DNA of 64,000 nucleotides from Alphaproteobacteria bacterium (GTDB lineage: Bacteria > Pseudomonadota > Alphaproteobacteria > Bin95): assembly GCA_022825195.1 (NCBI GenBank), contig JAJDYL010000101.1, positions 7,740-71,739 of the forward strand, given 5' to 3'. Shown here one piece after another: positions 1 through 56,507 of this stretch (positions are counted from its first letter, which is position 1; each line of letters opens with the position of its first letter). The position numbers and the translations under genes were made by a program. Under the pieces are notes generated by a model. That model did no database searches. It saw only the letters and a list, made by a program, of their open reading frames with translations, and was not told the origin of the DNA.

Positions 1-1047
1 CTGGAGCTGCTGGACGAGAGCTACGAGTTCCGGCGGTCCACGGATTTCATCAGCAGGAATTTCTCCGGCGTGGAAACCTACGAATACTCGCTCAGCGCCG
101 GGCGGGAAGGCGGCGTCACGGATGTCGACTACCTGAAGCGGGTGGACGCATTTGCGGCCTGGTACCGGACGCAGCCGGAAGTCGCCCACGTCTTCGCGAT
201 CTCCGACATCGTGAAGCGCCTGAACAGGAACCTGCATGGCGACGACCCCGACGAGTACCGCCTGCCGGGGGATTCGGACCTCGCCGCGCAATATCTGCTG
301 CTCTACGAATTCTCGCTGCCGGCCGGGCGCGACCTGAACAATCTGATCGACGTCGACCGGTCTTCCACGCGCATGACCGTCGTGTTGAAGAGCCTTTCCA
401 CCGCCGAGAAGATCGCGCTCGACGACCGTGCGCAGGGCTGGTTGCGGCAGAACGCCCCCGGAATGGAAACCGGCGCCACCGGCGTGGCGCTTGTCGGGGC
501 CCATTCGATCCAGAGGAACATAGAAGGCATGCTGCTCGGCACCGTCATCGCGATGGGCCTCGTCTCGCTGCTCCTGCTTCTCGTCTTCAAGAGCGTGCGC
601 CTCGGCGCGATCAGCCTGATACCCAATTTCGTTCCCGCCGCCATGGCGATGGGCCTGTGGGGCTATGTCGTGGGCGAAGTCGGGGTCGCGGCGTCGGTCG
701 TCACCGCGATCGCCTTCGGCATCATCGTGGACGACACCATCCACTTCATGACCAAATATGTTTCGGCCAGGAAGAGCGGGCTGCTGCCGTCGGAATCGGT
801 CCAGTCCGCCTTCCGCTCCGTCGGCCGGGCGCTGCTGGCGACGACGGTGGTGTTCGGGCTCGGATTCATGGTGTTCGCGGCATCGGGGCTGGTGACCAAC
901 CAGGCGCTCGGCCTGCTCGTGGGAATGACGGTCGTCATCGCGCTTCTGGCCGACTTCCTGTTCCTCCCGCCGCTGCTGATGGCGCTCGACCGCGCCGGGG
1001 AGACGAGCGCGGAGATCAGGGAGCGGCTGCGGCGGGAAGCCGGCTAA
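1..1047 (+). CDS. RND-superfamily (MMPL/HpnN-like, COG1033-type) inner-membrane exporter, C-terminal part; 5' end lies outside the window
   Basis: Frame 1 is open from nt 1. The translation shows multiple TM helices and the conserved RND/MMPL C-terminal transmembrane block (GIIVDDTIHFM..., LLADFLFLPPLLMAL). Paired with the LolA-like gene downstream. Confidence 0.75.
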   Translation: MELLDESYEFRRSTDFISRNFSGVETYEYSLSAGREGGVTDVDYLKRVDAFAAWYRTQPEVAHVFAISDIVKRLNRNLHGDDPDEYRLPGDSDLAAQYLLLYEFSLPAGRDLNNLIDVDRSSTRMTVVLKSLSTAEKIALDDRAQGWLRQNAPGMETGATGVALVGAHSIQRNIEGMLLGTVIAMGLVSLLLLLVFKSVRLGAISLIPNFVPAAMAMGLWGYVVGEVGVAASVVTAIAFGIIVDDTIHFMTKYVSARKSGLLPSESVQSAFRSVGRALLATTVVFGLGFMVFAASGLVTNQALGLLVGMTVVIALLADFLFLPPLLMALDRAGETSAEIRERLRREAG

Positions 1048-1124
1048 CCCGGCGTATTATGCTATCCTGCAGGAAAAGGCTTCGGCGGGGCCGTACGCGC
1101 CCCGGCTGCCGACAGGAGGAAACG

Positions 1125-1934
1125 GTGATACGCGCATTTCTCTCCCGCCCGCTGCCTGCGCTTTTCGGGCTCTTGCTTGCGGTCTTCGCCTGGCCGGCAG
1201 GCCTGGCGGCCGAAAGCGCCGAGGAAGCCGGGCTCAGGATCGCGACGGACGCCCGCGAACGGCAAAAGGGCTTCGGCAATTTCATCGCAGGCATGACCAT
1301 GACGCTCCGCAACAAGCGGGGCCAGGAGAGCCGCCGGGAAGTCCGCCTGAAGGTCATAGAGGTCGAGGCGGACGGCGACCGCACCCTGTTCGTGTTCGAC
1401 CGGCCGCGCGATGTCCGGGGAACGGCGTTTCTCGTCCACGCCCACAAGGAGGAGGCCGACGAGCAGTGGCTCTATCTCCCCGCCCTGAAGCGGGTCAAGC
1501 GCATCAGCTCCTCGAACCAGTCGGGTTCCTTCATGGGCAGTGAGTTCTCATACGAGGATCTGGGCACCCCCGAGGTCGAGAAATTCACCTATCGCCATCT
1601 CCGCGACGAAGCCTGCGGCGAACTCGAGTGCGTGGTTCTGGAGCGCGTGCCGACCGACAAGGATTCCGGATATTCCAGCCAGCTTGTCTGGTTCGACCGG
1701 GAGGAGCTGCGCACCCTGCAGATTCAGTTCTTCGACCGCAGGAAGGCCCATCTCAAGACGATGGTAGTGGAAGGCTACAAGAAATATCTCGGCCGCTTCT
1801 GGCGAAGCAGCAAGATCACGATGACCAACCATCTCACGGGAAAGAGCACCGTGCTGGACTGGTCGGACTACGAGTTCGGCACCGATCTCGACCTCGGCGA
1901 TTTCACACGCACGGCGCTGAAGCGGGCGCGGTAG
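1125..1934 (+). CDS. LolA-like outer membrane lipoprotein-sorting protein family (periplasmic hydrophobic-ligand carrier); GTG start
   Basis: AGGAGGA RBS 7 nt upstream of GTG at 1125. N-terminal signal peptide (LPALFGLLLAVFAWPAGLAAES). Central block EQWLYLPALKRVKRISSSNQSGSFMGSEFSYEDL is characteristic of this family, which commonly sits next to COG1033 RND exporters. Confidence 0.7.
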   Translation: MIRAFLSRPLPALFGLLLAVFAWPAGLAAESAEEAGLRIATDARERQKGFGNFIAGMTMTLRNKRGQESRREVRLKVIEVEADGDRTLFVFDRPRDVRGTAFLVHAHKEEADEQWLYLPALKRVKRISSSNQSGSFMGSEFSYEDLGTPEVEKFTYRHLRDEACGELECVVLERVPTDKDSGYSSQLVWFDREELRTLQIQFFDRRKAHLKTMVVEGYKKYLGRFWRSSKITMTNHLTGKSTVLDWSDYEFGTDLDLGDFTRTALKRAR

Positions 1935-1960
1935 CGCCCGGGCCTAACCGGGTTTCCGCG
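1935..1960. terminator. Weak bidirectional hairpin between convergent genes (cccgg-gcctaa-ccggg followed by ttt)
   Basis: Inverted repeat seen directly in the 10-nt gap between the two converging stop codons. T-run is short, so weak. Confidence 0.25.
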
Positions 1961-2969
1961 CAAGCACGAAATACATCGGCGTGAAGATGCCGAGCCGTCC
2001 GGCCTCCGCGAGGGCGCCGGCGGCGAGATTGAGCAGGGCCGAGACCCGGGTTGTGCCGCGCGGCACGAGTCTCAGCCGTTCGAGCAGCCAGAGCGAACCA
2101 TGGGTCACACGGCGGCCGGCGTCGGAGCTGCGGACGCTGGCGAAAGACAGGCCCGAGCCGGTGAGGGGCTGGTACCAGGGGATCCCCGGCGGCGCCTCGG
2201 CAGCCAGGTCGCGGGCCTCGACCAGCTCGAAGCCGGCATCGCGGACGGCGGCGTCCACCTCGTGCGGCCGGGCGATATCGGGCAGACCGCCGCCATGCTC
2301 CATCTCGGCCTTCAGCCGCCGATGGCCGGGATCGGCACCGTCGAACCGGTCTGTCAGGCAATATTCGTATACCGCCATCTGGCCGCCGGGCCGGAGCAGG
2401 CGAAAGGCTTCGCCATAGACGCCCTTCTTGTCCGGCGCGCAGCAGGTCGCCTCGATGGAATAAGCGGCATCGAACGAGGCGTCGGGCGCATCGACCCGCA
2501 TGAAATCGCATTCGATCCAGTCGGCCAGATGGCCGAGCCCCACCTCGTCGCAGCGCCTTGCGGCGCGTTCGAGCTGCAGCGCGTTGTTGTTGACGCCGAC
2601 GATCCGGGCGCCGGAAAAGCGCGCAATCTCGATCAGCGGCCCGCCCACGCCGCACCCCAGATCGACTGCCGTCATGCCCGGCGCCAGGCCGAGACGGTGG
2701 GCGACATAGTGCTCGTGCCGGGCGAGCGAGGCGGCGAAACTTTCGTTGGCGGCGCGCGGCGCGAAATGGAACGACTGGCCCCAACCATATTCGAAGAAAT
2801 CGGTGACCAGGTCGTAATAGGTGTTCTCGAAATTCCGGTAGTCCGTCTTGCGCTCGTCGAGGCTGTCCTGCGCTGCGCCGCCGTAACGGCGGGCATAGTC
2901 CTCGATGCGGGCGGCGACGCAGTCCCCGCCGCTTCCGTCCTTCAGGATGCCGGTAAGCCTGCGCGCCAT
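1944..2969 (-). CDS. Sterol 24-C-methyltransferase (ERG6/SMT family, class I SAM-dependent methyltransferase)
   Basis: 341 aa. Blocks YYDLVTDFFEYGWGQSFHFA, ESFAASLARHEHY, VDLGCGVGGP (SAM motif I), YSIEATCCAP, PWYQPLTG and C-terminal FTPMYFVLARKP are near-identical to motifs I recall from yeast ERG6 and plant SMT1. Confidence 0.9.
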   Translation of the reverse strand: MARRLTGILKDGSGGDCVAARIEDYARRYGGAAQDSLDERKTDYRNFENTYYDLVTDFFEYGWGQSFHFAPRAANESFAASLARHEHYVAHRLGLAPGMTAVDLGCGVGGPLIEIARFSGARIVGVNNNALQLERAARRCDEVGLGHLADWIECDFMRVDAPDASFDAAYSIEATCCAPDKKGVYGEAFRLLRPGGQMAVYEYCLTDRFDGADPGHRRLKAEMEHGGGLPDIARPHEVDAAVRDAGFELVEARDLAAEAPPGIPWYQPLTGSGLSFASVRSSDAGRRVTHGSLWLLERLRLVPRGTTRVSALLNLAAGALAEAGRLGIFTPMYFVLARKPG

Positions 2970-3115
2970 TGCAAGAACTCAACCCTTATGTCCCGCCGCA
3001 CACCCTATAGTCGGCGGTATGTTTTGTCGTCGGTCGATGCAATACCGAAAATGGGGAAATCGGGCGCACCCGATGCAAGCGGCGGCTTCCCGCGGTGGAA
3101 CCGGCAGGCAACCGG

Positions 3116-5143
3116 TCAGACGGGCAGTGCGCGCCTCTGCTCGGCGACGAGGAATTTCAGCTTCCTGCTCGGCTTCATCGACGGCAGCGGACTGAACCGG
3201 AGCCTGTAATCGGCCGGAGACACTTTGAGCGTGAAATAGTGCGCGACCATCAGCACGTTGACCGCCAGTTGCAGGTCCATCCAGCGGGAGCCGAGGCACC
3301 GGTGCGTGCCCAGTCCGTAAGGTGCGTATCCGGGGCTGCGGTGCTCGTTGCGCGGCGGCTGATGGCGGTCGATATCGAATGAGAACGGATCCGGGAAGGT
3401 CTCTTCCATGTAATGCGGTGCCGTCTGGGCGATATGAAGCCGCGTCCCGACCGGCAATTCGTAGCCCTCGACCACGCAGGAATTCATCACGTTCCTGAGG
3501 GACATCGGAACGATCGGGTACATCCGCAGGCACTCGACAAGAAAACGGTGCGTGACGTCCATCGAGGGCGGACCGAAATCCTCGCCGGCCGGATCGCCGC
3601 CGTCGAACAGGACATCGGCTTCGTTCTGGATTCTCTCGTAAAGCTCGGGCTGCGCCGCCATGGCGTAAACCGCGAAGCTGAACGCATCGCCGAGATACAC
3701 GCTGGCGATAAGTGCTGCCGAAAGGGCGAAGCGCAGATTCGATTCCGGCACCAGTTGCGGATCGCTTGCGTGCAGGCTCAGCAAATCGTCCGCAAGGTCC
3801 CGCGGGCAGCCGGCTCGCTGGGCCGGCGTGTGGACGCTCTGGATCCTCGCCAACAGGGTGTCGATGGCCTTCGCCGTGCGCCTCATTCCCGGCGTGTTCA
3901 GCATGAACCTCGGCAGGGCCCCGATTATGTGCGTGGTGAGCGCCCGCTCCTTGTACGCCATCAGGTTATCGAAGAGGTCCTGGGAATCGACGCTCACCGC
4001 GAGAGAAGAGATTTGCGCATTTATCATTCGCCGGCATGTGCGCGTAGCAGGCAGCGCGTCGCCAACCGTCCAGCTTGCCATGAATTTGCGGCCGTGATGG
4101 TAAATCTGGTCCAACTGGCCCGCCAGCCTCTCCCGCGAATAGGCAGGCGACATGGCCTTGCGGAGCCGGAAATGGTCGGTGCCGTCCAGGGACGGCAATA
4201 CACCGGAGGCGCCGTAGATTTTCTCAAAATCGGCGAAATAGTCCCGGGCCCTCAGATATAACCGCCCGTGCCGGTGCACCCAGCGGTTTATCTCGGAACC
4301 GGCAACGAAAATCATCGGTTCCTTGAACGGAGGACAGATCTGAAAAACCGGGCCGTACCGTTCCGCCAGGTCGGCAAAGAGCGCAGGAATGTTGCCGGTG
4401 CGAATATGCGGACTGAGCAGCAGTCTGCGCAAAGAAACTTTTGGAATTTGTTTGGACAGCGTTGAACGCCGGAGAAGAGGATTGGCTATATTGTGTTTGA
4501 CTGCATCGGCTATGGAACGGCTGATCAAGTCCATCATGCAGATATTTCTGATCCGCTCTTCAGCCTCCTCGTCCAGCTCGAATATGAAACGAAAGACATC
4601 GCATGTATCGACGAGTGAAATAATGATGACATCCCTGGGACCGGGAATCAGATCGGTCAAAATGACCTGGCCGATACGCGCCTTGATAAATTGACCTGCG
4701 GTTCCCTCTCGAGGCCTTCCATCTTGATCGGCAAGAATTTTGTTCGAAGCAAGCGTGTAGAACTCGCCATTATGGCGTTCAAGGATGTTCAGAGCGACCA
4801 AGCGGTCCAGAGTTATCTCGATCACGGATTCGGCATGGAGAACGAGCCGCTCAATCCAGTATTGGGCGTCATGTTGTCCGGGCTCGCAGGCGATCCGGTT
4901 GAGAATGGAATCCAGGGCAGGATCGCCGGTTTCCGTAGCGTCCACCAGGTGCAGCGCCTCCATGTCGGTGTCGAGGCGCGAACGGAGGGAGAGTTCCGCA
5001 AGCACGGCGCCGACAACAGCGCAATTCAGGTCCCAGCCGGGCACCTGGTGAAAGTAGCCGTTCTGCTCGTTGAGGAGCACCAGGATGAGTTCGTCGGGCA
5101 AACTCAGCGCCGGCGTCGTCGAAATCGTCTCGGTACCAGCCAT
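3116..5143 (-). CDS. Two-domain protein: N-terminal GPP34/GOLPH3-like domain (about 225 aa) fused to a C-terminal cytochrome P450
   Basis: Start taken at MAGTETIS (ATG preceded by GAGGAGG); the track ORF extends 43 codons further upstream from a TTG. N-terminal part matches the GPP34 pattern (LSLPDELILVLLNEQNGYF...WDLNCAVVGAVLAELSL...GDPALDSILNRIA...AQYWIERL). C-terminal part has P450 ExxR (ECLRMYP) and the heme-thiolate loop YGLGTHRCLG. No canonical AGxD/ETT I-helix threonine is visible. Confidence 0.8.
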   Translation of the reverse strand: MAGTETISTTPALSLPDELILVLLNEQNGYFHQVPGWDLNCAVVGAVLAELSLRSRLDTDMEALHLVDATETGDPALDSILNRIACEPGQHDAQYWIERLVLHAESVIEITLDRLVALNILERHNGEFYTLASNKILADQDGRPREGTAGQFIKARIGQVILTDLIPGPRDVIIISLVDTCDVFRFIFELDEEAEERIRNICMMDLISRSIADAVKHNIANPLLRRSTLSKQIPKVSLRRLLLSPHIRTGNIPALFADLAERYGPVFQICPPFKEPMIFVAGSEINRWVHRHGRLYLRARDYFADFEKIYGASGVLPSLDGTDHFRLRKAMSPAYSRERLAGQLDQIYHHGRKFMASWTVGDALPATRTCRRMINAQISSLAVSVDSQDLFDNLMAYKERALTTHIIGALPRFMLNTPGMRRTAKAIDTLLARIQSVHTPAQRAGCPRDLADDLLSLHASDPQLVPESNLRFALSAALIASVYLGDAFSFAVYAMAAQPELYERIQNEADVLFDGGDPAGEDFGPPSMDVTHRFLVECLRMYPIVPMSLRNVMNSCVVEGYELPVGTRLHIAQTAPHYMEETFPDPFSFDIDRHQPPRNEHRSPGYAPYGLGTHRCLGSRWMDLQLAVNVLMVAHYFTLKVSPADYRLRFSPLPSMKPSRKLKFLVAEQRRALPV

Positions 5144-5387
5144 CAGCCATGGCCTCCTCGTACCCGAAACCGCCCCGTGCCACCGATACGAGGCTCCGGA
5201 GCGGCGGGCATGAGACCCGTGGACACGGCCAGTGAAATGAACATGTTCGGAACAACCGTAATCCCGCGCCAAGGCGAATCCGGAGACATGAGGAGCCGTC
5301 GTCGTTCACCTTACACTGTGGAATGTCGACCAAAGATGGCCGACAGTCAAGTCTGCGGTGTTCCAGCCGGCCTGGACAGTGTTGATT

Positions 5388-6503
5388 CTATTGCTGAAAT
5401 CTGACGCTGCGCCTGCGCGCCGGACTATCGTCCGATGGTGGCGCAATCCGTTCCAGGGGCGGCCGGTGGAATAGTTGACCGTCCGGGTAGAACTGCTCGC
5501 AGTAGCGCCGGAATTTTCCGATCGGGCCGTCCGAGCGGCAGAGCCCCGGGTGGAGCCGGTATCGTTTCCGGCCCCAGATGACCACGTCCTGCAACACATC
5601 GTGTTTCTGGGCCGTCACGATGATCTTGTTCATGAGCCGGGTGCGCAGCCGAACAGGAAGGAATCGCATTCCGACGATCGGCCGCTTAGGCTTCAGCAGC
5701 CGCCGCACCTGGCTCACCAGTGTCATTTCGACCAGCTCGCCGTCGATGGGCGTTGCGAGCACCCATAATCGGGTGTCCATGCCGATATAATGTTCACGAA
5801 CCTCGACATAGGAATATCCGAGGCCGTGCACATGGGTTACGGCGGAAACATCGTAGGTGAAGCACTTCATTCCCAAGGCGGTCTGGGTTCGCCTGAAGTC
5901 GAAGCAACTCTTGAGCCAGGTTCCTTCTACCGATACCGGGCCGACCGCGTTCACGCTGTCATAGCCGTGCACATAGCGCAGATGCCCGAGATCGACGGAA
6001 TTCTCGGTCGTTTCCTGGGGATGCCCCGCAAATCGGACGCGCCGGACTTCCATCTCGCTCCAGTCGCTGTCGTCGGGCGGGGAAGCGGGCAGATCCCACT
6101 GTGGCGGCCGTCCGCCGCTGCCGCGCCAGGCAAAGACGAGACCCAGAATTTCGCGCGTCTCAAACACTCTCAATCTGGCGGACCGGGGCGGCGGCGCGTA
6201 GGGCGTCGCCACGCACTGACCGGTGACGTCATATTCGAACCCATGAAACGGACAGACGAGGCAACCGTTGCGCACCCGGCCTCCCGCCTCGGGCCCCAGA
6301 TCCGCGCCCAGATGGGGGCAGACCGCTACGGCTACGCAAACATCGCCGTTCCCGTTACACCAGACGACAATCCGTTCGCCAAGCCAGGTCTTTTGCAACA
6401 GCTTTTTGTCTTCTATCGTCTGGCGGCTGGCGACGAAATACCAGCCTTCCGGAAATGGAAAAAGCGAGGGAATACCGTCGGGATCGTTCGAACTGATTTG
6501 CAT
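5388..6503 (-). CDS. Rieske [2Fe-2S] non-heme-iron oxygenase, KshA/Neverland/SdmA-like
   Basis: Rieske motif CPHLGADL...(17 aa)...CPFHGFE and mononuclear iron motif D-x2-H-x4-H (DLGHLRYVHG). GGGAGAG RBS upstream of ATG. Confidence 0.85.
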   Translation of the reverse strand: MQISSNDPDGIPSLFPFPEGWYFVASRQTIEDKKLLQKTWLGERIVVWCNGNGDVCVAVAVCPHLGADLGPEAGGRVRNGCLVCPFHGFEYDVTGQCVATPYAPPPRSARLRVFETREILGLVFAWRGSGGRPPQWDLPASPPDDSDWSEMEVRRVRFAGHPQETTENSVDLGHLRYVHGYDSVNAVGPVSVEGTWLKSCFDFRRTQTALGMKCFTYDVSAVTHVHGLGYSYVEVREHYIGMDTRLWVLATPIDGELVEMTLVSQVRRLLKPKRPIVGMRFLPVRLRTRLMNKIIVTAQKHDVLQDVVIWGRKRYRLHPGLCRSDGPIGKFRRYCEQFYPDGQLFHRPPLERIAPPSDDSPARRRSVRFQQ

Positions 6504-6753
6504 GCGATACGGACTCTCCCAGGTCCGGCGGTCGCGGTCTTCCCCAACCGATTAATCGGTCCGGCAGCGAAGGTAATTATATACCTTACAATATCGCGTA
6601 AGGCGCGGCAACGGAAACAGTCAGCGAAGTGGAAACGGCTCCAACCTCAAACCGCATTCGACAACTTCGCGATACCGGCCGGTCGGGATTTCATGTCCGG
6701 CTCGGGCATCTCCGGAAATCCGGGAGCGAAGCCTGCCTGCAGACGGTGGTAGT
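6504..6753. promoter_or_regulatory. Divergent promoter region between the Rieske-P450-SMT operon (minus) and the COG2907 gene (plus)
   Basis: 250-nt AT-richer spacer (attaatcggtccggcagcgaaggtaattatatacc) with a small hairpin ccttac-aatatcgc-gtaagg. No operator consensus recognised. Confidence 0.3.
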
Positions 6754-8145
6754 ATGGGGGCGATGAATGAAACGGCGCAAGCAGCCTTGCCGAGAAGGAT
6801 TGCCATTATCGGCGCAGGCGTCTCCGGACTGGGGGTAGCCTGGGCGCTGCACCGCCATCCGGACCGGTTCGATTTCCGACTGTTCGAAGCCCAGGCCCAA
6901 ATCGGCGGAAACGCCATTACGGTAGATATGCCGCAGGACGACGGCACGTCGGTTCCTTTCGATATTTCGGTCACTGCCTGCATTCCCTCAGTCTATCACC
7001 ATATTGTCCTGCTCATGCAGCAGCACGGCATAGAACTGGTCGATACCAGATTCAGCTACAGCGTAAAGTACCGAGGCGGTATCTACGCTCACGATTTCGA
7101 CTCCGAAATCAGGAGGCAGCTGCAACCGGAAATCGACAAATTCCAGAGGCTCCTGAGATGTTTGAGGCGAGTGGGCACGCTCAACCGGTCCAGGTCCAGA
7201 CTGCTCAATGCTCTCAACCCGTTGAACTATGTCAGCATGGGCGCACTGCTCAATTTGGGCAGATTCTCCGGAGACTTCAGATACAAGATACTCAAGCCTA
7301 TGTTTGTCAATTTCCTGATGGCGACGAATGTATTCGATATGTCCGCTTCCCTGTTTGCCCGCTATTTGGAATTCTTCGATATTGAAACAGCAACCCCTAT
7401 GCAAACCTGGAAACAGGGAACACGGAGAATCTATGAAGAAATTTCAGCAGGTTTTCGGGAAAAGATTTACCTTAGCCGACCGGTTCATAAAGTATACCGC
7501 CATCGGTCAAAAGTGGTTGTAGAGGATGAGGGTGGGAATATGGAAACATTCGACGATGTCGTTCTTGCGTGCAATGCAAATCAGACATTGATGATTCTCG
7601 ACAAACCGTCTTTTTTGGAAAGCAGCCTTCTGTCTTCGGTCCGATACGAAAGCGAGTTGCATAACCACACCGTCGTGCATTCTGACGCGTCCGTCCTTCC
7701 GGATAACGAGGCCAGGCCCCTCGCCACGCGGAGCAACCATATCGAACAGTACGGCACCAGGCCCGACAATTACGAAATCACCTACATCATGCACAATCAG
7801 CAGCCTTGGGCGAAACGGTCGGACAAGCCCTGCCTCGTCACCTACAATCCGATCAGCCCTATCGACGAGGCTAGGATCGTCAGGAAGTGGTGGTTCCAGC
7901 ACATCGTCCACGATGTCCGCCATGTGACGGTTCTGACGCAGCTGTTTCGCTTCATCCAGGGCAGGAGGCGGACATGGCATTGCGGGGCCCACACGCTGAT
8001 CAACAGCCAGGAGACCTGTTTCGTATCCGGCCTTGTCACCGCGGGGCAGCTGGGCGCGGGCTATCCGTTTCAGGACGCTGAGGCACGGCGCTGGTTCAAC
8101 TTTTACGGGCGCATAATGTTCGGCTGGCGCTTCCGGAAGGCCTGA
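6754..8145 (+). CDS. FAD/NAD(P)-binding amine-oxidase-like oxidoreductase, COG2907 family (the family usually found beside cyclopropane-fatty-acid synthase genes)
   Basis: N-terminal Rossmann fold RIAIIGAGVSGLGVAW...FEAQAQIGGNAITV. Overall layout matches COG2907 members as I recall them (VVLACNANQTLMIL, C-terminal WHCGAH...SGL). Confidence 0.7.
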   Translation: MGAMNETAQAALPRRIAIIGAGVSGLGVAWALHRHPDRFDFRLFEAQAQIGGNAITVDMPQDDGTSVPFDISVTACIPSVYHHIVLLMQQHGIELVDTRFSYSVKYRGGIYAHDFDSEIRRQLQPEIDKFQRLLRCLRRVGTLNRSRSRLLNALNPLNYVSMGALLNLGRFSGDFRYKILKPMFVNFLMATNVFDMSASLFARYLEFFDIETATPMQTWKQGTRRIYEEISAGFREKIYLSRPVHKVYRHRSKVVVEDEGGNMETFDDVVLACNANQTLMILDKPSFLESSLLSSVRYESELHNHTVVHSDASVLPDNEARPLATRSNHIEQYGTRPDNYEITYIMHNQQPWAKRSDKPCLVTYNPISPIDEARIVRKWWFQHIVHDVRHVTVLTQLFRFIQGRRRTWHCGAHTLINSQETCFVSGLVTAGQLGAGYPFQDAEARRWFNFYGRIMFGWRFRKA

Positions 8146-8255
8146 ATCCGGCTTGTTCCGCCGCTTGCCATCGACGGCGGGCCTGCTGTATCCAGCCTTC
8201 GGCCCCGGAGGGGTCAGGCAACCGGTCGGATCGGGGAGGGAGCGGGAACAGGGAA

Positions 8256-8331
<76 letters not shown>

Positions 8332-8491
8332 AATCCGGGCGGCTTCTAGCCGCTCTCCACCGGCGGGTCAAGCGAGCGGCCGGGCATTTGGGAAGGGCTT
8401 CAAGGATGCAAGAGACAGCGATCGCCGCGCCGTTTGCCGAACTGCAGGGGGGCAGGAGGGCGGGTTCGGCGCCGGGTACCGGGCGCAGCCG

Positions 8492-10135
8492 GTGATTTTC
8501 GATCCGATTCTTCCGGCCTGGCGGGCGGAAAAGCACCGCGCCGAGGGCCATTGGCGCGACCGCATCCTGCTCGACTATTTCGACGAGGCTGTTGCGCGCA
8601 AGCCGGACGCCGTCGCGGTCGTCGCCCGTTGCATGGAGGACGGCGGCGAGACCGTGCTGTCCTGGCGCCAGCTCAAGCGGCTTTCCGACAGGATGGCCCT
8701 CGGCCTTCACATGCACGGTCTGCGGAAGGGAGATGTGCTCGCCTTCCAGCTCCCCAACTGGTGGCAGTTTTATTGCTTGCACATTGCCTGTCTTCGCATC
8801 GGCGTCTGCTCCAACCCGCTGATGCCGATTTTCCGCGAGCGCGAGCTGGCCTTCATGGTCGATTTTGCGGAAGCGAAGGCGCTGGTCACGCCGAAGATGT
8901 TTCGCGGCCACGACCACGCGGCCATGGCGCGGGAGCTCCGGTCCGCATTGCCGAAGCTGGAGCACCTGTTCGTCGTCGGCGAAAACTTCGAGACCGCGCT
9001 GCTGGACCCCACGCTTGACCAGGAGCTGGATGCCGCGACGGTGTTCGCGGCCGGAAGGCCGGACCCGGACGAGGTGATCCAGCTGCTCTACACCTCCGGC
9101 ACGACCGGCGAGCCCAAGGGGGTGATGCACACCTCCAACACGCTGATCGCCATGGTGATGAGCTATGTCGAGCGCATCGGCCTCGGCGAGGACACGGCGA
9201 TCCTGATGGGCTCTCCGTTGGCGCACCAGACGGGGTTCATGTACGGCCTGATGCTCTCGCCCGTGCTCGGCGCCAAGACCTGCTACCTCGACATCTGGGA
9301 TCCGGAGGCGGCGCTTCGGCTGATCCAGGACGAGGCCGTGACCTTCACCATGGGGGCGACGCCGTTCCTGGCCGACCTCGCCAACAGCCCCGTGCTCGAC
9401 CGCTACGACATTTCGAGCCTGGAGGCCTTCGTGTCCGCCGGGGCGCCGATCCCGCGCGTGCTGGTCGAACAGGCCGGAGAGCGCCTCGGCTGTTTCGTCC
9501 ATTCCGGCTGGGGCATGACCGAAAACGGCTTCGGCTCGGGCACGAGGAGGACCGACCCGCCGGCGCGCGTGTTCGGGACGGACGGCAGCGCCGTGTCCTG
9601 CCTGGAAGTGCGCGTGGTCGGGGAAGACGGAGCGCCGGTTCCGGACGACGAGGAAGGGCGCCTGCAGGTGCGGGGCGCCGGCCAGTTCGTCGGCTATCTG
9701 AAGCGCCCGGAGCGCTACGACACGGACGCGGACGGGTGGTTCGAGACCGGCGACAATGCCCGGATGGACGCCGACCGCTATATCAGGATATCGGGCCGGT
9801 CCAAGGACATCATCATCCGGGGCGGCGAGAACATTCCCATCGTCGAGGTCGAGGAACTGCTCTACCGGCATCCCGGGGTGGCGGACTGCGCCATCGTCGC
9901 CATGCCGGACGACCGCCTCGGCGAGCGGGCATGCGCCTTCGTGACGCTTCGGCCCGGTGCGGAGACGCTGACGTTCGATGCGATGTGCGGCTTCCTGCTG
10001 GAGCGCCGGCTGGCGAAGCCTTACCTGCCCGAGCGCCTGGAACTGGTGGACGCCATGCCGCGCACGGCTTCCGGGAAGATCCAGAAATTCCGCCTGCGCG
10101 AACTCGCGGCCGATCTCAGGCCAATGCGGGAATGA
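8492..10135 (+). CDS. AMP-dependent acyl-CoA synthetase/ligase
   Basis: AMP-binding signature LYTSGTTGEPKGVMHTSNT and C-terminal GEN/SGKIQK motifs. GTG start. Confidence 0.85.
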   Translation: MIFDPILPAWRAEKHRAEGHWRDRILLDYFDEAVARKPDAVAVVARCMEDGGETVLSWRQLKRLSDRMALGLHMHGLRKGDVLAFQLPNWWQFYCLHIACLRIGVCSNPLMPIFRERELAFMVDFAEAKALVTPKMFRGHDHAAMARELRSALPKLEHLFVVGENFETALLDPTLDQELDAATVFAAGRPDPDEVIQLLYTSGTTGEPKGVMHTSNTLIAMVMSYVERIGLGEDTAILMGSPLAHQTGFMYGLMLSPVLGAKTCYLDIWDPEAALRLIQDEAVTFTMGATPFLADLANSPVLDRYDISSLEAFVSAGAPIPRVLVEQAGERLGCFVHSGWGMTENGFGSGTRRTDPPARVFGTDGSAVSCLEVRVVGEDGAPVPDDEEGRLQVRGAGQFVGYLKRPERYDTDADGWFETGDNARMDADRYIRISGRSKDIIIRGGENIPIVEVEELLYRHPGVADCAIVAMPDDRLGERACAFVTLRPGAETLTFDAMCGFLLERRLAKPYLPERLELVDAMPRTASGKIQKFRLRELAADLRPMRE

Positions 10136-11973: not shown

Positions 11974-12201
11974 ATGAACCTCACGATCTCTATAGACGAC
12001 GACATTCTCGAACACGCCCGGATCAGGGCAATTCGGGAAAAGACGTCCGTCAATGCAGTCGTGCGGGAATATCTGCACGCCTATGCGGGAGTTGACCGTC
12101 AACGCGCCGAAGCCTGCGATTCGCTGTTGGCCTTGTCGCAGGCGAGCGGTTCCCGGCGGGGTGGGGCGGTCTGGACGCGCAGCGAACTCCATGAGCGTTG
12201 A
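11974..12201 (+). CDS. vapB: VapB-type antitoxin (type II TA)
   Basis: 75-aa protein; GGAGG RBS. Overlaps the downstream PIN-domain gene by 11 nt. Confidence 0.65.
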   Translation: MNLTISIDDDILEHARIRAIREKTSVNAVVREYLHAYAGVDRQRAEACDSLLALSQASGSRRGGAVWTRSELHER

Positions 12202-12616
12202 GTGGAAGTTCGTCGACACGAATGTGCTGGTCTATCTGTTCGATGTCGATGCGCCGGACAAACGCGCGCGCGCGCAGGCACTCCTGCGCGAAGAGAAGGA
12301 CTGCATCGTGTTGAGCATACAGGTCCTCGGCGAATTCTATGTGACGGTAACGCGGAAATTCACAGAGTCGTTAAGCCGTGAATCCGCGGCCCGGGCCGTC
12401 GATGCATTCAGCCGGTTTCGCGTCCAGCCGGTTCATCCGGAGACGGTGAACGCCGCCATCCGTCGAAGTCGTTCGACACTGCTGTCCTACTGGGATGCAT
12501 TGATCGTCGAGGCGGCGTTGACCGCCGGAGCGGGCGTGCTCTTTACCGAGGACCTTCAGGACGGCCAGCGGATCGAAGGCTTGCAGATCGTCAATCCGTT
12601 CCGAAGCGGCGGCTGA
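12191..12616 (+). CDS. vapC: VapC PIN-domain toxin
   Basis: FVDTNVLVY...SIQVLGEF...YWDALIV...FTED; PIN acidic residues present. ATG overlaps the stop of the upstream antitoxin. Confidence 0.8.
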   Translation: MSVEWKFVDTNVLVYLFDVDAPDKRARAQALLREEKDCIVLSIQVLGEFYVTVTRKFTESLSRESAARAVDAFSRFRVQPVHPETVNAAIRRSRSTLLSYWDALIVEAALTAGAGVLFTEDLQDGQRIEGLQIVNPFRSGG

Positions 12617-53983: not shown

Positions 53984-54024
53984 CGACGACATTCGCTTGG
54001 AGTCCGGACTAGCAGAAGCACTCC

Positions 54025-54624
54025 TTACTCTTCATCTAGCTTTGTTGTGCCTGCGCAATTGCCGAGTTCCAGAATTACCTCATTATAGCTAACTTTGGTG
54101 TGTCTGAAGTGGCTGTTTATGCCCAATTGGAAGCTGGGACTGCTATCGCTACAATCAACAAGGGCATCGCCGTCAGTGAAAGCAAGTTCTCTGCAAACTC
54201 TATATGGATTGAATTTGTAATTGTCGACCTTTATACATGATGAAAACCAAGGTTTATACGGGCTACCAGGAAGATGTTTGTTGTGTAATTCTCGTTCTGA
54301 TTTTCGTAAAGCATGCTCAGAAGCACATCTTGAAAACATCGGATGTTCGCCATATTTATTATTCAGATACTTCAAAGCTTCATCCTCATCAAAAGAAAAT
54401 GGTATGTGTATCTTCGTTATAGTGAACTTTCTTTCCTTGTAGCCCTTTACACCCCATTTCTTGTTGAAAATATCATAATTAAAGTGCAATGATAAATCGG
54501 GCGCGCAAATGGTTGTAAAACCTTTAAGTGGACGATCTGTAACTTCCGCAGCCGATACTTGGTCGACAGACATAATCAGCAGTAAGCCCAAACTGAAACT
54601 TGTTACCCTGTTTCGAATGGGCAC
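54025..54624 (-). CDS. Secreted cysteine-containing hypothetical protein (signal peptide), very low GC
   Basis: 199 aa. Signal peptide LGLLLIMSVDQVSAAE, 8 Cys, no recognisable domain. Gene is about 40% GC in a roughly 68% GC genome. Confidence 0.5.
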   Translation of the reverse strand: MPIRNRVTSFSLGLLLIMSVDQVSAAEVTDRPLKGFTTICAPDLSLHFNYDIFNKKWGVKGYKERKFTITKIHIPFSFDEDEALKYLNNKYGEHPMFSRCASEHALRKSERELHNKHLPGSPYKPWFSSCIKVDNYKFNPYRVCRELAFTDGDALVDCSDSSPSFQLGINSHFRHTKVSYNEVILELGNCAGTTKLDEE

Positions 54625-54652
54625 GATTAAATGCTCTTTGGGCCGTCTGTCG

Positions 54653-54704
54653 CCCTACCGCGTCGGGATGGGGTGGTCGCCGGAATAGTCGTAGAAGCCG
54701 CGGC
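54653..54704. repeat. Direct repeat copy 2 (the authentic 3' end of hbd)
   Basis: ccctaccgcgtcgggatggggtggtcgccggaatagtcgtagaagccgcggc. Confidence 0.8.
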
Positions 54705-55548
54705 CGGCCTTGCGGCCGATCCAGCCGGCCTCGACATATTTCACCAGCAGCGGGCAGGGACGGTACTTGCTGTCGGCGAGCCCGTCATAGAGCACCTGCA
54801 TCACCGCGAGGCAGGTGTCCAGCCCGATGAAGTCCGCGAGCTCCAGCGGCCCCATCGGGTGGTTGGCGCCGAGGCGCATGCCGGTGTCGATGGCATCCAC
54901 CGAGCCCACGCCCTCATAGAGCGTATAGACGGCCTCGTTGATCATCGGCAGCAGGATGCGGTTGACGATGAAGGCCGGGAAGTCCTCCGCCGCCACCGGC
55001 GTCTTGCCGAGCGAGACGGCGAACTCCTTCACGTCCTCGAAGGTGTTGTCCCCGGTCGCGATGCCCCGGATCAGCTCGACCAGCGACATCATCGGCACCG
55101 GGTTCATGAAGTGCAGGCCGATGAACCGCTCCGGGCGGTCGGTCGTGGAAGCGAGCCGCGTGATCGAGATCGAGGAGGTGTTGGAGGCGACGATGGCGCC
55201 CTCGGCGAGATGCGGCAGCAGCGCCTTGAACACTTCGCGCTTCACCGCCTCGTTCTCCGTGGCGGCCTCGATCACGATGTCGCAGTCGCCGAAGCCGGCA
55301 TAATCGGTGCCGGCGTCGATGCGCGCCAGCGCGTCGGCCTTCGCGGCCTCGTCGAACAGGCCCCGGCGCAATTGCCGGTCCATGTTGCGGCCGATGACGG
55401 CGAGGCTCCGCTCCAGCGCCCGCTCCTCGATATCGACCAAGCGCACATCGAAGCCCGAAATCGCGGCCACATGCGCGATGCCGCTGCCCATCTGCCCGGC
55501 GCCGACGACGCCGACCGTGCGGATACGGCTATCCAGACCCTTCGGCAT
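54655..55548 (-). CDS. hbd: 3-hydroxybutyryl-CoA / 3-hydroxyacyl-CoA dehydrogenase
   Basis: VGVVGAGQMGSGIA Rossmann motif and NTSS catalytic block. An in-frame TTG at 55557 overlapping the etfA stop is an alternative start. Confidence 0.9.
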   Translation of the reverse strand: MPKGLDSRIRTVGVVGAGQMGSGIAHVAAISGFDVRLVDIEERALERSLAVIGRNMDRQLRRGLFDEAAKADALARIDAGTDYAGFGDCDIVIEAATENEAVKREVFKALLPHLAEGAIVASNTSSISITRLASTTDRPERFIGLHFMNPVPMMSLVELIRGIATGDNTFEDVKEFAVSLGKTPVAAEDFPAFIVNRILLPMINEAVYTLYEGVGSVDAIDTGMRLGANHPMGPLELADFIGLDTCLAVMQVLYDGLADSKYRPCPLLVKYVEAGWIGRKAGRGFYDYSGDHPIPTR

Positions 55549-55553
55549 GGCGG

Positions 55554-56507
55554 TCAATCGTTTTCCGCCTTGTATTCTTCGATCACGCCGGTGAGTTCCG
55601 GCACGGCCTTGAACAGGTCGGCGACGAGGCCGTAATCCGCGACCTGGAAGATCGGCGCTTCCTCGTCCTTGTTTATGGCGACGATCACCCTGCTGTCCTT
55701 CATGCCGGCGAGATGCTGGATGGCGCCCGAAATGCCGACCGCGATGTAGAGCTCCGGGGCGACGACCTTGCCGGTCTGCCCGACCTGGTAGTCGTTCGGC
55801 ACGTAGCCCGCATCGACCGCCGCGCGCGAGGCGCCGACCGCCGCGCCCAGCCGGTCGGCAAGGGCTTCCAGGATGTTGAAGTTCTCGCCGGAGCCCATGC
55901 CGCGCCCGCCGGAAACGACGATGCCGGCGGTGGTGAGTTCCGGGCGCTCGGACTTGGTGAGCTCGCGTCCGACGAAGCTGGAGAGCCCGACGCTGCCGGC
56001 GCCCGACGCCGCCTCGACCGGCGCGGAACCGCCCTCTGCGGGAGCCGCGTCGAACGCCGTCATGCGCACCGTGATGAGCTTGACGGGGTCGCCGGACTGC
56101 ACCTTCGCCATGGCGTTGCCCGCATAGATGGGGCGCACGAAAGTATCCGCGGAGACGACCTCCGTAATGTCCGAGATCTGCGCCACGTCCAGCAGCGCCG
56201 CGGCGCGGGGCAGGATGTTCTTGCCGTTCGCGGTCGCCGGCGCGAGCACATGGCTGTAGCTGCCGGAAAGATCGACCACCAGCTTCGCGACATTTTCCGC
56301 CAGCGCGTGTTCGTAGGCCGCGTCTTCGGCGACGAGGACCTTCGCGACGCCCGCGACCTGCGCGGCCGCCTCGGCGGCGGGGCCGCAGCCCTGGCCGGCG
56401 ACCAGCACATGCACGTCGGCATCGATCTCCGCCGCCGCGGCGACGGCGTTGCGCGTGGCCGCCTTCAAGGTGGCGTTGTCGTGTTCGGCAATGACGAGAA
56501 CGCTCAT
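55554..56507 (-). CDS. etfA: Electron transfer flavoprotein alpha subunit
   Basis: FAD-binding C-terminal domain ([19 protein letters not shown]). Confidence 0.9.

Follow-up and report, generated by a model that had tools for sequence, protein, structure and literature searches.

The flavoenzyme gene and its protein

The stretch analyzed here, referred to as the window, comprises 64,000 nucleotides of contig JAJDYL010000101.1 of an Alphaproteobacteria bacterium. It encodes a flavin adenine dinucleotide (FAD)-dependent oxidoreductase, hereafter the flavoenzyme, whose gene is divergent from the genes of a KshA-like Rieske oxygenase, a fusion of a GPP34 domain with a cytochrome P450 (GPP34-P450) and a sterol C-24 methyltransferase (SMT); genes of MMPL and LolA-like proteins and a tRNA gene belong to the same locus (Table 1). 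Comparison with related loci showed that this flavoprotein of the UfaD/LkcE type is a conserved and strongly constrained member of bacterial sterol gene clusters; the sterol clusters carrying it have probably spread horizontally, above all among sponge symbionts. The flavoenzyme probably performs an undescribed sterol-modifying step and is probably not specifically a partner of the SMT.

In Pfam scans, the protein matched Amino_oxidase (residues 23-283, E 2e-14) and NAD_binding_8. It has a two-domain Amino_oxidase-type fold with the GxGxxG motif of a FAD-binding Rossmann domain at its N-terminus; according to the Pfam and alignment analyses, this is its one dinucleotide-binding motif and an NAD(P)H domain is absent. 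The alignment also contains an H309-x-D311 motif common to the whole family, which, judged from the sequence, is a candidate for the general base. A basic/aromatic C-terminal helix (residues 442-459), also present in the isoprenoid-linked outgroup described below and absent from the UfaD-type protein of Pseudoalteromonas, would suit peripheral membrane binding. The NCBIfam scan found no model dedicated to this protein and gave only N-terminal matches to the dinucleotide motif (PPOX, HpnE, VioA) far under the cut-offs. The Pfam and NCBIfam scans gave no match to FA_hydroxylase, P450, FAD_binding_4 (VAO), ERG4_ERG24, GGR or FAD_binding_2, and the flavoenzyme therefore has no homology to the known sterol desaturases and reductases of these families (ERG3/SC5D, ERG5/CYP710, DHCR24, ERG4/DHCR7, Bsr, KstD).

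3D modeling using the AlphaFold2 program, based on an alignment of 32 sequences, gave a model with a predicted local distance difference test score (pLDDT) of 89 and a predicted template modeling score (pTM) of 0.90. According to the analysis in the Foldseek program, the closest solved structure is LkcE (template modeling score (TM) 0.85/0.90, root-mean-square deviation 2.5 A, 24% identity), followed by MAO-family enzymes; for classical, MAO-type amine oxidases, the TM was ~0.62 at 13-15% identity. LkcE is also the only solved relative found by sequence (phmmer E 2e-26, residues 13-445), and the sequence match to bona fide amine oxidases is limited to the dinucleotide-binding motif (E above 0.001). 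These comparisons gave no positive sign of a bona fide amine oxidase, an outcome which the first-pass annotation of this DNA had kept in view.

The same annotation assigned the protein to COG2907, and the assignment is borne out by full-length homology to UfaD-type oxidoreductases and by the JGI label "predicted NAD/FAD-binding protein", the COG2907 descriptor, which is attached to members of the clade and to relatives, including the deep-branching P0274 and P0276. In tblastn, relatives at 27-30% identity (90-94% coverage, E 1e-24 to 6e-40) were detected in 126 plasmid/chromid records. The annotated contexts have the order sigma-E/ChrR anti-sigma, FAD oxidoreductase, DUF1365, (SDR), cyclopropane-fatty-acyl-phospholipid (CFA) synthase. 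This canonical context was confirmed in Aminobacter and Pseudoalteromonas, so that CFA synthase and DUF1365 had rightly been named as the usual partners of the family as far as these operons are concerned.

Table 1. Genes and other features around the flavoenzyme gene (positions in the window)
Feature	Position	Strand	Remarks
MMPL/RND transporter, C-terminal part	70..1047	+	truncated by the window edge; whole gene 778 amino acids (aa) on the source contig
LolA-like/DUF1329-type periplasmic lipid-carrier protein	1119..1934	+	LolA_like E 8e-60; convergent with the SMT gene
Sterol C-24 methyltransferase (SMT), 341 aa	1944..2969	-	Sterol_MT_C domain E 6e-23
GPP34/GOLPH3-like and cytochrome P450 fusion, 675 aa from the ATG at 5143	3116..5143	-	also called as 675 aa on the source contig; mechanical open reading frame (ORF) reaches 5272
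Rieske [2Fe-2S] oxygenase with KshA_C domain, 371 aa	5388..6503	-	Rieske E 2e-17, KshA_C E 2e-24
Divergent intergenic region Rieske/flavoenzyme, 250 bp	6504..6753		AT-rich stretch ~6573-6597
Flavoenzyme gene, 463 aa	6754..8145	+	ORF with ATG start; FAD-dependent oxidoreductase, UfaD/LkcE-type branch of the amine-oxidase fold
tRNA-Phe (GAA)	8256..8331	-	110 bp downstream of the flavoenzyme gene; edge of the lower-GC segment

Gene neighbourhoods and evolution of the clade

A word-indexed protein search returned 1869 proteins, the best 120 of which were all 80-100% identical to the flavoenzyme; source names include Bacteroidetes, Rhodospirillaceae, Acidobacteriota, Halieaceae and Defluviicoccus. 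A relative is encoded by at least 579 stretches of the GTDB species-representative collection. The 80 most similar ones, with 79-85% identity, come from more than 12 phyla and comprise Alpha- and Gammaproteobacteria, Nitrospirales, Bryobacterales/Vicinamibacteria, Rhodothermales, Binatia, Thermodesulfobacteriota, Dadabacteria, Nitrospinota, Poriferihabitaceae, Spirochaetia and Gemmatimonadaceae. As judged from the titles of the database records, many of which name projects on sponge metagenome-assembled genomes (MAGs), the clade is mostly sponge-associated; metagenome matches include JGIcombinedJ30088, an Aplysina aerophoba metagenome according to Brown et al. (PMC10070321). When 1.84 billion representatives of 50% clusters were searched exhaustively with HMMER, the clade proved to be isolated, with one full-length representative at 64% identity (P0121) and the next full-length sequences at 36-38% (P0134, P0135).

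Gene neighbourhoods were compared in 163 non-redundant loci (taken from 80 genomes and as many metagenome contigs, plus the window and several look-ups), which are not phylogenetically independent. Neighbours were recognized by tblastn thresholds in flanks of 8-10 kb, and families were defined by all-against-all ORF clustering and Pfam. At least one sterol-related gene was present in the flank of 101 of the 163 loci. The most frequent neighbours were GPP34-P450 (66 loci), the KshA-like Rieske oxygenase (43), SMT (41), MMPL (28), a TPR protein (26) and ERG2 (11), and a core sterol gene, namely, a fusion of squalene epoxidase (SE) and oxidosqualene cyclase (OSC), a CYP51-like P450, ERG24, an SdmA-like Rieske/VanA_C protein, an SdmB-like 3beta-hydroxysteroid dehydrogenase/epimerase or ERG2, was found in 25. 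Within 400 bp of the flavoenzyme gene, the counts were 41 for GPP34-P450, 34 for the Rieske oxygenase, 23 for the TPR protein, 10 for ERG2, 7 for SdmB and 0 for SMT. Pairing with the SMT, the idea from which the analysis started, thus holds as an association far above chance, in 41 loci and at least four gene orders, and homologues of the flavoenzyme are indeed enriched near a lipid methyltransferase; the pairing is, however, indirect, the SMT gene never lying within 400 bp.

The sterol linkage persists through at least four rearranged architectures, in many phyla and at 58-85% identity. In architecture A (Gammaproteobacteria, Nitrospirales), genes for SMT, SE-OSC, CYP51, ERG24, SdmA and SdmB are divergent from the flavoenzyme gene. 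Architecture B (Thermodesulfobacteriota, Dadabacteria) has the order LolA-like, DUF1302-like, SMT, ERG24 paralogue, GPP34-P450 and flavoenzyme, the last being convergent with the TPR gene. Architecture C, found in Alphaproteobacteria including the window, consists of an outer-membrane protein (OMP), MMPL, LolA-like, SMT, GPP34-P450 and Rieske genes divergent from the flavoenzyme gene. In architecture D (Acidobacteriota, Rhodothermales), the order is (SMT), AcrB, GPP34-P450, flavoenzyme and Rieske, or Rieske, flavoenzyme and P450 with a 26-bp gap and no SMT. Within the symbiont sterol clusters, the flavoenzyme is as conserved as CYP51 or SdmB. Twelve soil-type loci (58-62% identity) have no conserved neighbour in common.

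Members of the deeper branches, which are the most informative, are linked to ERG2. The locus of P0121 has the order SE, SdmB, CYP51, SdmA, OSC, TPR, flavoenzyme, ERG2_Sigma1R and ERG4_ERG24, with no SMT within 10 kb. In P0276 and P0274, which are 58-60% identical to the window protein, the flavoenzyme gene directly follows ERG2_Sigma1R with overlapping stop and start codons; on the 104-kb contig of P0276, no sterol gene other than ERG2 lies within 10 kb. Metagenome loci show the orders ERG24-ERG2-flavoenzyme (L093) and ERG2-flavoenzyme (L094, L095), and at the end of OSC-SdmA-CYP51-SdmB clusters ERG2 is divergent from the flavoenzyme gene (L156, L162; also L167, L172). ERG2 lies at a distance of at most 150 bp in 10 loci, among them L037 of the sponge clade (149 bp upstream).

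The gene of the nearest outgroup protein, P0134 (36% identity; L088:89-5043), overlaps an SQS_PSY gene; next come the genes for a second amine oxidase (557 aa) and a polyprenyl synthase. Since P0134 is encoded beside squalene/phytoene synthase and polyprenyl synthase, the neighbouring branch of the family is isoprenoid-linked too, and the gene set suggests an uncharacterized isoprenoid desaturation pathway. In the clade itself, no squalene/phytoene synthase gene was found near any member in the 163 loci, and an HpnE-like role in squalene formation is therefore unlikely. Two distant relatives at 32-33% identity, P0168 (976 aa) and P0178 (932 aa), appear by eye to be fused to a domain resembling carotenoid cleavage dioxygenases (RPE65 type), with either domain order.

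Pairwise comparisons within the clade gave a median synonymous rate (dS) of ~1.1, which is near saturation, many pairs being saturated, a nonsynonymous rate (dN) of ~0.10 and a dN/dS of ~0.08. The GC content at third codon positions (GC3) of the flavoenzyme gene varies from 0.52 to 0.93 and tracks the GC content of the host flanks (r ~0.77). The gene is therefore old, horizontally distributed, long resident in its hosts and under strong purifying selection. Recent transfer, considered on account of the low GC content of the gene in the window, was rejected as a general explanation, as GC3 follows the host and most pairs are close to or past the saturation of dS; it may apply to this particular genome.

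Several genes recurring in these loci deserve separate mention. The SE-OSC fusion is a single protein of 1163 aa (SE residues 32-410, cyclase 502-1130; L050:13363-16851, minus strand) and occurs at no fewer than eight further loci (L007, L008, L009, L040, L051, L059, L061, L075). An apparent conserved gene between SdmA and CYP51 ("unk281") turned out to be an opposite-strand shadow ORF of ERG24. The TPR/RMD1-3-like protein of ~263 aa is encoded less than 60 bp from the flavoenzyme gene, usually in convergent orientation (L060:11414-12202, minus strand, and 22 further loci; L089:8960-9823). It was considered as a sterol carrier similar to BstC and discarded, having no sequence match to BstC/Tp0956 and only generic TPR/RMD3 matches.

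A second ERG4/ERG24 paralogue ("ERG24b"), which shares ~30% identity with ERG24 from the core clusters, lies between SMT and GPP34-P450 (L058:3855-4991, minus strand; type B loci; L113, L140) and is 81-100% identical across Dadabacteria, Gemmatimonadota and Acidimicrobiaceae. Against the Protein Data Bank (PDB), where only Delta14-reductases represent the family, it scored 113 bits and the type A paralogue 235 bits, and its JGI label is "delta14-sterol reductase"; it may be a Delta14, Delta7 or Delta24(28) reductase. In addition, a gene of the FA_hydroxylase family, to which ERG3 and ERG25 belong, is located 1.5 kb downstream in two Rhodobacterales MAGs (L069:12879-13940 and L078:12980-14068, both minus strand).

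As for the window itself, the Rieske protein has KshA 3-ketosteroid 9alpha-hydroxylases as its best solved relatives (E 3e-25), and its identification as SdmA was rejected (26 bits with the SdmA model vs a cut-off of 600). The N-terminal GPP34 domain of the P450 fusion was recognized by Pfam (E 2e-26), and the protein is not close to any solved P450 family. In eukaryotes, GPP34/GOLPH3 is a Golgi phosphoinositide-binding domain. Tandem double copies of GPP34-P450 exist at some loci (e.g., L036, L042, L058). The three minus-strand genes are divergent from the flavoenzyme gene, as the first-pass annotation had stated; the operon it saw in them, ending in the SMT gene, is plausible, the gaps inside the series being 244 and 146 bp. 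The intergenic region between the Rieske and flavoenzyme genes is presumed to be the site of divergent promoters; a scan of positions 1800-8600 for sigma-70 consensus promoters and terminators gave nothing above shuffled expectation.

The best solved relatives of the MMPL protein are HpnN hopanoid transporters, and the sterol transporter BstA belongs to the MMPL family as well (PMC10942540). The LolA-like gene recurs beside MMPL, DUF1302-like and OMP beta-barrel genes in related loci, and this set of OMP beta-barrel, HpnN-like MMPL, LolA-like (DUF1329) and DUF1302-like genes accompanies the sterol-tailoring genes (window 70-1934; L001:1037-5181; related loci). It is likely a route, distinct from the BstABC system of Methylococcus, by which sterols are exported to the outer membrane.

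The GC content is 0.54 in the flavoenzyme gene, 0.61 in the Rieske gene, 0.59 in the P450 gene and 0.68 in the SMT gene vs a window mean of 0.67. A 16-nt direct repeat (CAGGCAACCGGTC[A/G]GA, 15/16 matching; 3105-3120 and 8215-8230) exactly brackets the lower-GC P450-Rieske-flavoenzyme segment, and its second copy, 26 bp from the tRNA-Phe gene, could mark the insertion of a three-gene module. The idea of a genomic island was nevertheless rejected: chance alone would produce about one repeat pair of this kind in 12 kb, the match does not continue into the flanks, and no integrase was noticed. A small DUF6364/PIN-domain gene pair, a putative toxin-antitoxin system, lies a few kb past the tRNA gene (window ~11974-12616; L001:15221-15863), and a second GC dip was noted at positions 54001-56000 (0.59 vs ~0.68).

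Proposed reaction and its alternatives

The neighbourhoods point to a tie of the flavoenzyme gene to the sterol pathway as a whole, with the tightest links to the sterol nucleus, and the protein is very probably a sterol-pathway enzyme. As for the type of reaction, an oxidative one is favoured because the only characterized close relatives are oxidative and UfaD converts a mono-ene into a conjugated diene, a kind of reaction common in late sterol synthesis; that the flavoenzyme is a desaturase, at whatever position, is considered somewhat probable. Rings B/C are favoured as the site because of the translational coupling to ERG2 in basal members and the tight linkage to the KshA-like Rieske gene in the sponge clade, KshA being a ring B/C steroid oxygenase that hydroxylates C-9 of the nucleus. 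The co-clustered genes already cover C-14 demethylation and reduction, C-4 demethylation and Delta8-to-Delta7 isomerization. In eukaryotes, the step after ERG2 is C-5 desaturation by ERG3. For these reasons, and because an FA_hydroxylase-family gene is near the flavoenzyme gene in only 2 of the 163 loci, C-5 is the preferred position, and a specific role as C-5(6) sterol desaturase is tentatively proposed as one possibility. The best explanation overall, to which we give about even chances, is that a FAD enzyme of the UfaD/LkcE lineage serves in sterol metabolism as a flavin-dependent desaturase, most plausibly of ring B; the regiochemistry is read from the gene neighbours only.

According to this proposal, the flavoenzyme would be a cytoplasmic, probably membrane-peripheral protein that was recruited into bacterial sterol metabolism. 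Its flavin would take a hydride from an allylic C-H of a mono-ene sterol, loss of a proton would give a conjugated diene, and the electrons would pass to O2 or quinone, as in UfaD and CrtI-type desaturases. The site would be C-5(6) of the Delta7-sterol made by the ERG2 isomerase and the products Delta5,7-sterols, which would make the flavoenzyme a non-homologous analogue of ERG3/SC5D. In the bacterium carrying the window, the product might be further oxidized by the KshA-like Rieske oxygenase and GPP34-P450, alkylated at C-24 by the SMT and carried to the outer membrane by the MMPL/LolA-like system.

The sterols of Ircinia sponges include cholestatrienol and 5,8-epidioxy, 5,6-epoxy-Delta7 and 9alpha-hydroxy-5,6-epoxy-Delta7 sterols with C-24 methyl/ethyl side chains, compounds that also arise by autoxidation of 7-dehydrosterols (PMC6267468). 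Such Delta5,7-derived sterols fit a C-5(6) desaturase without proving it. A more speculative proposal, which we regard as improbable, is that the flavoenzyme, the KshA-like Rieske oxygenase and GPP34-P450, together with the SMT and the MMPL/LolA-type exporter, form a horizontally spread pathway to the ring-B-oxidized, side-chain-alkylated sterols of Ircinia and related sponges. Flavin-dependent C-5 desaturation in place of ERG3, epoxidation by the P450 and 9alpha-hydroxylation by the Rieske oxygenase would then lead from Delta5,7-dienes to 5alpha,6alpha-epoxy-Delta7 and 9alpha-hydroxy sterols. If so, part of the "sponge" sterol signature would be made by symbionts, or remodeled by them from host sterol, through an enzyme class new to sterol biosynthesis.

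Several observations weigh against a ring-B desaturase. Adjacency to ERG2 is seen in 11 loci, most of which do not belong to the sponge clade (where it occurs in 2 of 99), and 62 of the 163 loci, many on short contigs, have no sterol-related gene in the flank. Genes for OSC, CYP51, ERG24 and the Sdm proteins are absent from the 64-kb window, so that the source genome may make sterols from genes located elsewhere or may remodel host sterols. The FA_hydroxylase gene of the two Rhodobacterales MAGs, if it is an ERG3, would make a C-5 desaturase redundant in those genomes. Moreover, UfaD is not known to act on any substrate other than a phospholipid acyl chain, UfaD-type proteins are only ~30% identical to the flavoenzyme, reductases and isomerases also occur among the enzymes of this fold, and the SMT gene within 10 kb in 41 loci leaves room for a role at the side chain.

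Such a side-chain role, in which the flavoenzyme would act with the SMT as UfaD does with UfaM, survives best among the alternatives, although we consider it rather unlikely. Desaturation at C-24, the allylic position that bears the methyl group, of a Delta25(27)- or Delta24(28)-24-alkyl sterol would give a conjugated side-chain diene or re-create an olefin for further methylation; alternatively, the enzyme would introduce a Delta22 bond. It is a carry-over of this oxidoreductase and olefin-methyltransferase chemistry that the first-pass annotation had suggested, and the chemical part of the analogy is sound, as UfaD desaturates the methyl-branched product of the olefin C-methyltransferase UfaM, for which it is specific (PMC7380195); the products of bacterial SMTs from sponge symbionts are of the Delta25 and Delta24(28) types, and these enzymes methylate repeatedly (PMC10070321); SMT is found in the flanks in four architectures. 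The pairing at the side chain is nevertheless not the best-supported reading: besides never being adjacent, the SMT shows much weaker conservation (37-56% at most loci vs 79-85% for the flavoenzyme), none is in reach of the basal members, which are found in ERG2 operons or complete sterol clusters, and the Rhodothermales loci consist of Rieske, flavoenzyme and P450 genes with no SMT.

A sterol double-bond reductase, acting on Delta24(25), Delta24(28), Delta7 or Delta14 through reduced flavin in place of DHCR24, ERG4 or DHCR7, is judged unlikely. Some members of the wider amine-oxidase/CrtI superfamily, RetSat and HpnE, do carry out saturation or reductive steps. No DHCR24-type or Bsr-type gene was noticed in the clusters, and bacteria do employ a non-canonical flavoprotein, Bsr, for C-24 reduction (PMC12004948). 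Bsr, however, belongs to a different family, that of geranylgeranyl reductases; the characterized close relatives of the flavoenzyme, UfaD and LkcE, are both oxidative, and the protein has a single dinucleotide-binding motif and no NAD(P)H domain. In addition, ERG24-type reductases of two paralogue groups are already present in the same clusters, and the co-clustered SMT would face competition for its substrate from a Delta24(25) reductase. The Delta24(28) reductase named in the first-pass annotation therefore becomes less likely, given an oxidative desaturase as the only characterized close relative and the different family of the known C-24 reductase (PMC12004948).

Redox-neutral, flavin-dependent isomerization of a double bond in the sterol nucleus or side chain has a small chance of being the reaction. 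Olefin isomerases of this fold exist, such as CRTISO and the polyenoic fatty-acid isomerase of Propionibacterium, and ERG2, to which the flavoenzyme gene is closely tied, encodes a double-bond isomerase itself; yet ERG2 already supplies Delta8-to-Delta7 isomerization in the same operons, and no characterized member of the UfaD/LkcE branch is an isomerase. Finally, a non-sterol enzyme hitch-hiking with sterol islands, either a true amine/amide oxidase or, like UfaD, a fatty-acyl desaturase of furan fatty-acid synthesis, would accommodate the Pfam Amino_oxidase match and the 62 loci with no sterol neighbour, but is highly improbable in view of the persistent sterol linkage, the replacement of the catalytic residues of LkcE (T74 and Y344 for E64 and R326), the low similarity to MAO-type amine oxidases, and the tblastn search of the 163 loci, in which DUF1365/UfaO and CFA synthase/UfaM were found in none and a ChrR homologue in one (L006).

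The literature already covers clusters of steroid genes (CSGs; PMC9531527), bacterial SMTs (PMC10070321), SdmAB and Bsr (PMC12004948) and BstABC transporters (PMC10942540). The flavoenzyme, the KshA-like Rieske oxygenase and GPP34-P450 are mentioned neither by Kelly et al. (PMC9531527) nor by Brown et al. 2023 for their SMT clusters (PMC10070321): the words "FAD", "Rieske", "P450" and "oxidoreductase" do not occur in the text and the searched supplements of the latter, nor does "Rieske" in the former. A full-text literature search found no paper on a bacterial GPP34-P450 fusion, and the papers on sterols and sponges found in this way contain no description of the flavoenzyme. The novelty would lie in the appearance of an established flavoenzyme lineage in another pathway, probably with a reaction new to that pathway. 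Bacterial sterol synthesis is being re-evaluated with respect to the origin of the eukaryotic pathway and to sterane biomarkers, e.g., the 24-isopropylcholestane "sponge" signal. A flavin-dependent sterol desaturase, if real, would be a new enzyme class in sterol biochemistry, would define which sterols sponge symbionts actually make, and would provide a metagenome marker gene for this capacity, with ~80% identity across phyla.

Comparison with known systems

The nearest functional precedent is the fatty-acyl desaturase UfaD (RSP1091 of Rhodobacter sphaeroides; RPA2571), which belongs to the furan fatty-acid pathway (Lemke et al. 2020, PMC7380195). It converts 11-methyl-12-trans-18:1, the product of the S-adenosylmethionine-dependent methylase UfaM, into a conjugated 10,12-diene and needs O2 in vivo; UfaO of the same pathway is a DUF1365 protein (PMC7380195). 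The flavoenzyme belongs to the same "predicted NAD/FAD-binding protein" lineage and shares the FAD and H-x-D motifs and 27-30% full-length identity with the oxidoreductases of equivalent operons, with which, instead of the RSP1091 sequence itself, the comparison was made. The UfaD substrate is a lipid olefin, and its mono-ene-to-diene chemistry serves as the template of the mechanism proposed here. Unlike UfaD, the flavoenzyme falls into a separate, isolated clade at ~30% identity, has sterol genes as neighbours and, in the 163 loci, has no DUF1365 or CFA synthase partner; it also differs from the UfaD-type protein of Pseudoalteromonas in clade-specific insertions and in the C-terminal helix.

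LkcE, the closest solved structure, is the amide oxidase/Mannich macrocyclase of lankacidin synthesis (PDB 6F32, 6F7L), in which E64 and R326 are essential and Y182 is also conserved (PMC6162330). In the sequence alignment, the places of E64 and R326 are taken by T74 and Y344, respectively, which do not vary within the clade, and identity as an LkcE-type cyclase was therefore rejected. No polyketide synthase genes were seen near the flavoenzyme gene on the window contig and in related loci.

ERG3/SC5D resembles the flavoenzyme in the proposed reaction (Delta7 to Delta5,7) and in the position directly after ERG2, an equivalence suggested by the gene neighbours. Unlike the flavoenzyme, it is a di-iron membrane enzyme of the FA_hydroxylase family, with a different fold and cofactor and no homology.

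Bsr, the bacterial sterol C-24 reductase of the geranylgeranyl-reductase family, occurs mainly in Myxococcota and Cyanobacteriota (PMC12004948). Like the flavoenzyme, Bsr and SdmA/SdmB came to notice as unexplained genes in sterol clusters and show that sterol steps in bacteria can be carried out by enzymes unrelated to the eukaryotic ones. In contrast to it, they are members of other protein families with reactions already assigned, and the flavoenzyme clade is found mainly in sponge symbionts.

The CSGs of Ircinia symbionts are distributed over ~10 phyla, with horizontal gene transfer and purifying selection (Kelly et al. 2022, PMC9531527). The type A loci match their published layout of an SdmB-like "DFR", an SdmA-like hypothetical protein, ERG24, CYP51, LSS and SMT (PMC9531527), and the flavoenzyme clade resembles the CSGs in its spread over many phyla, its horizontal transfer and the purifying selection acting on it.

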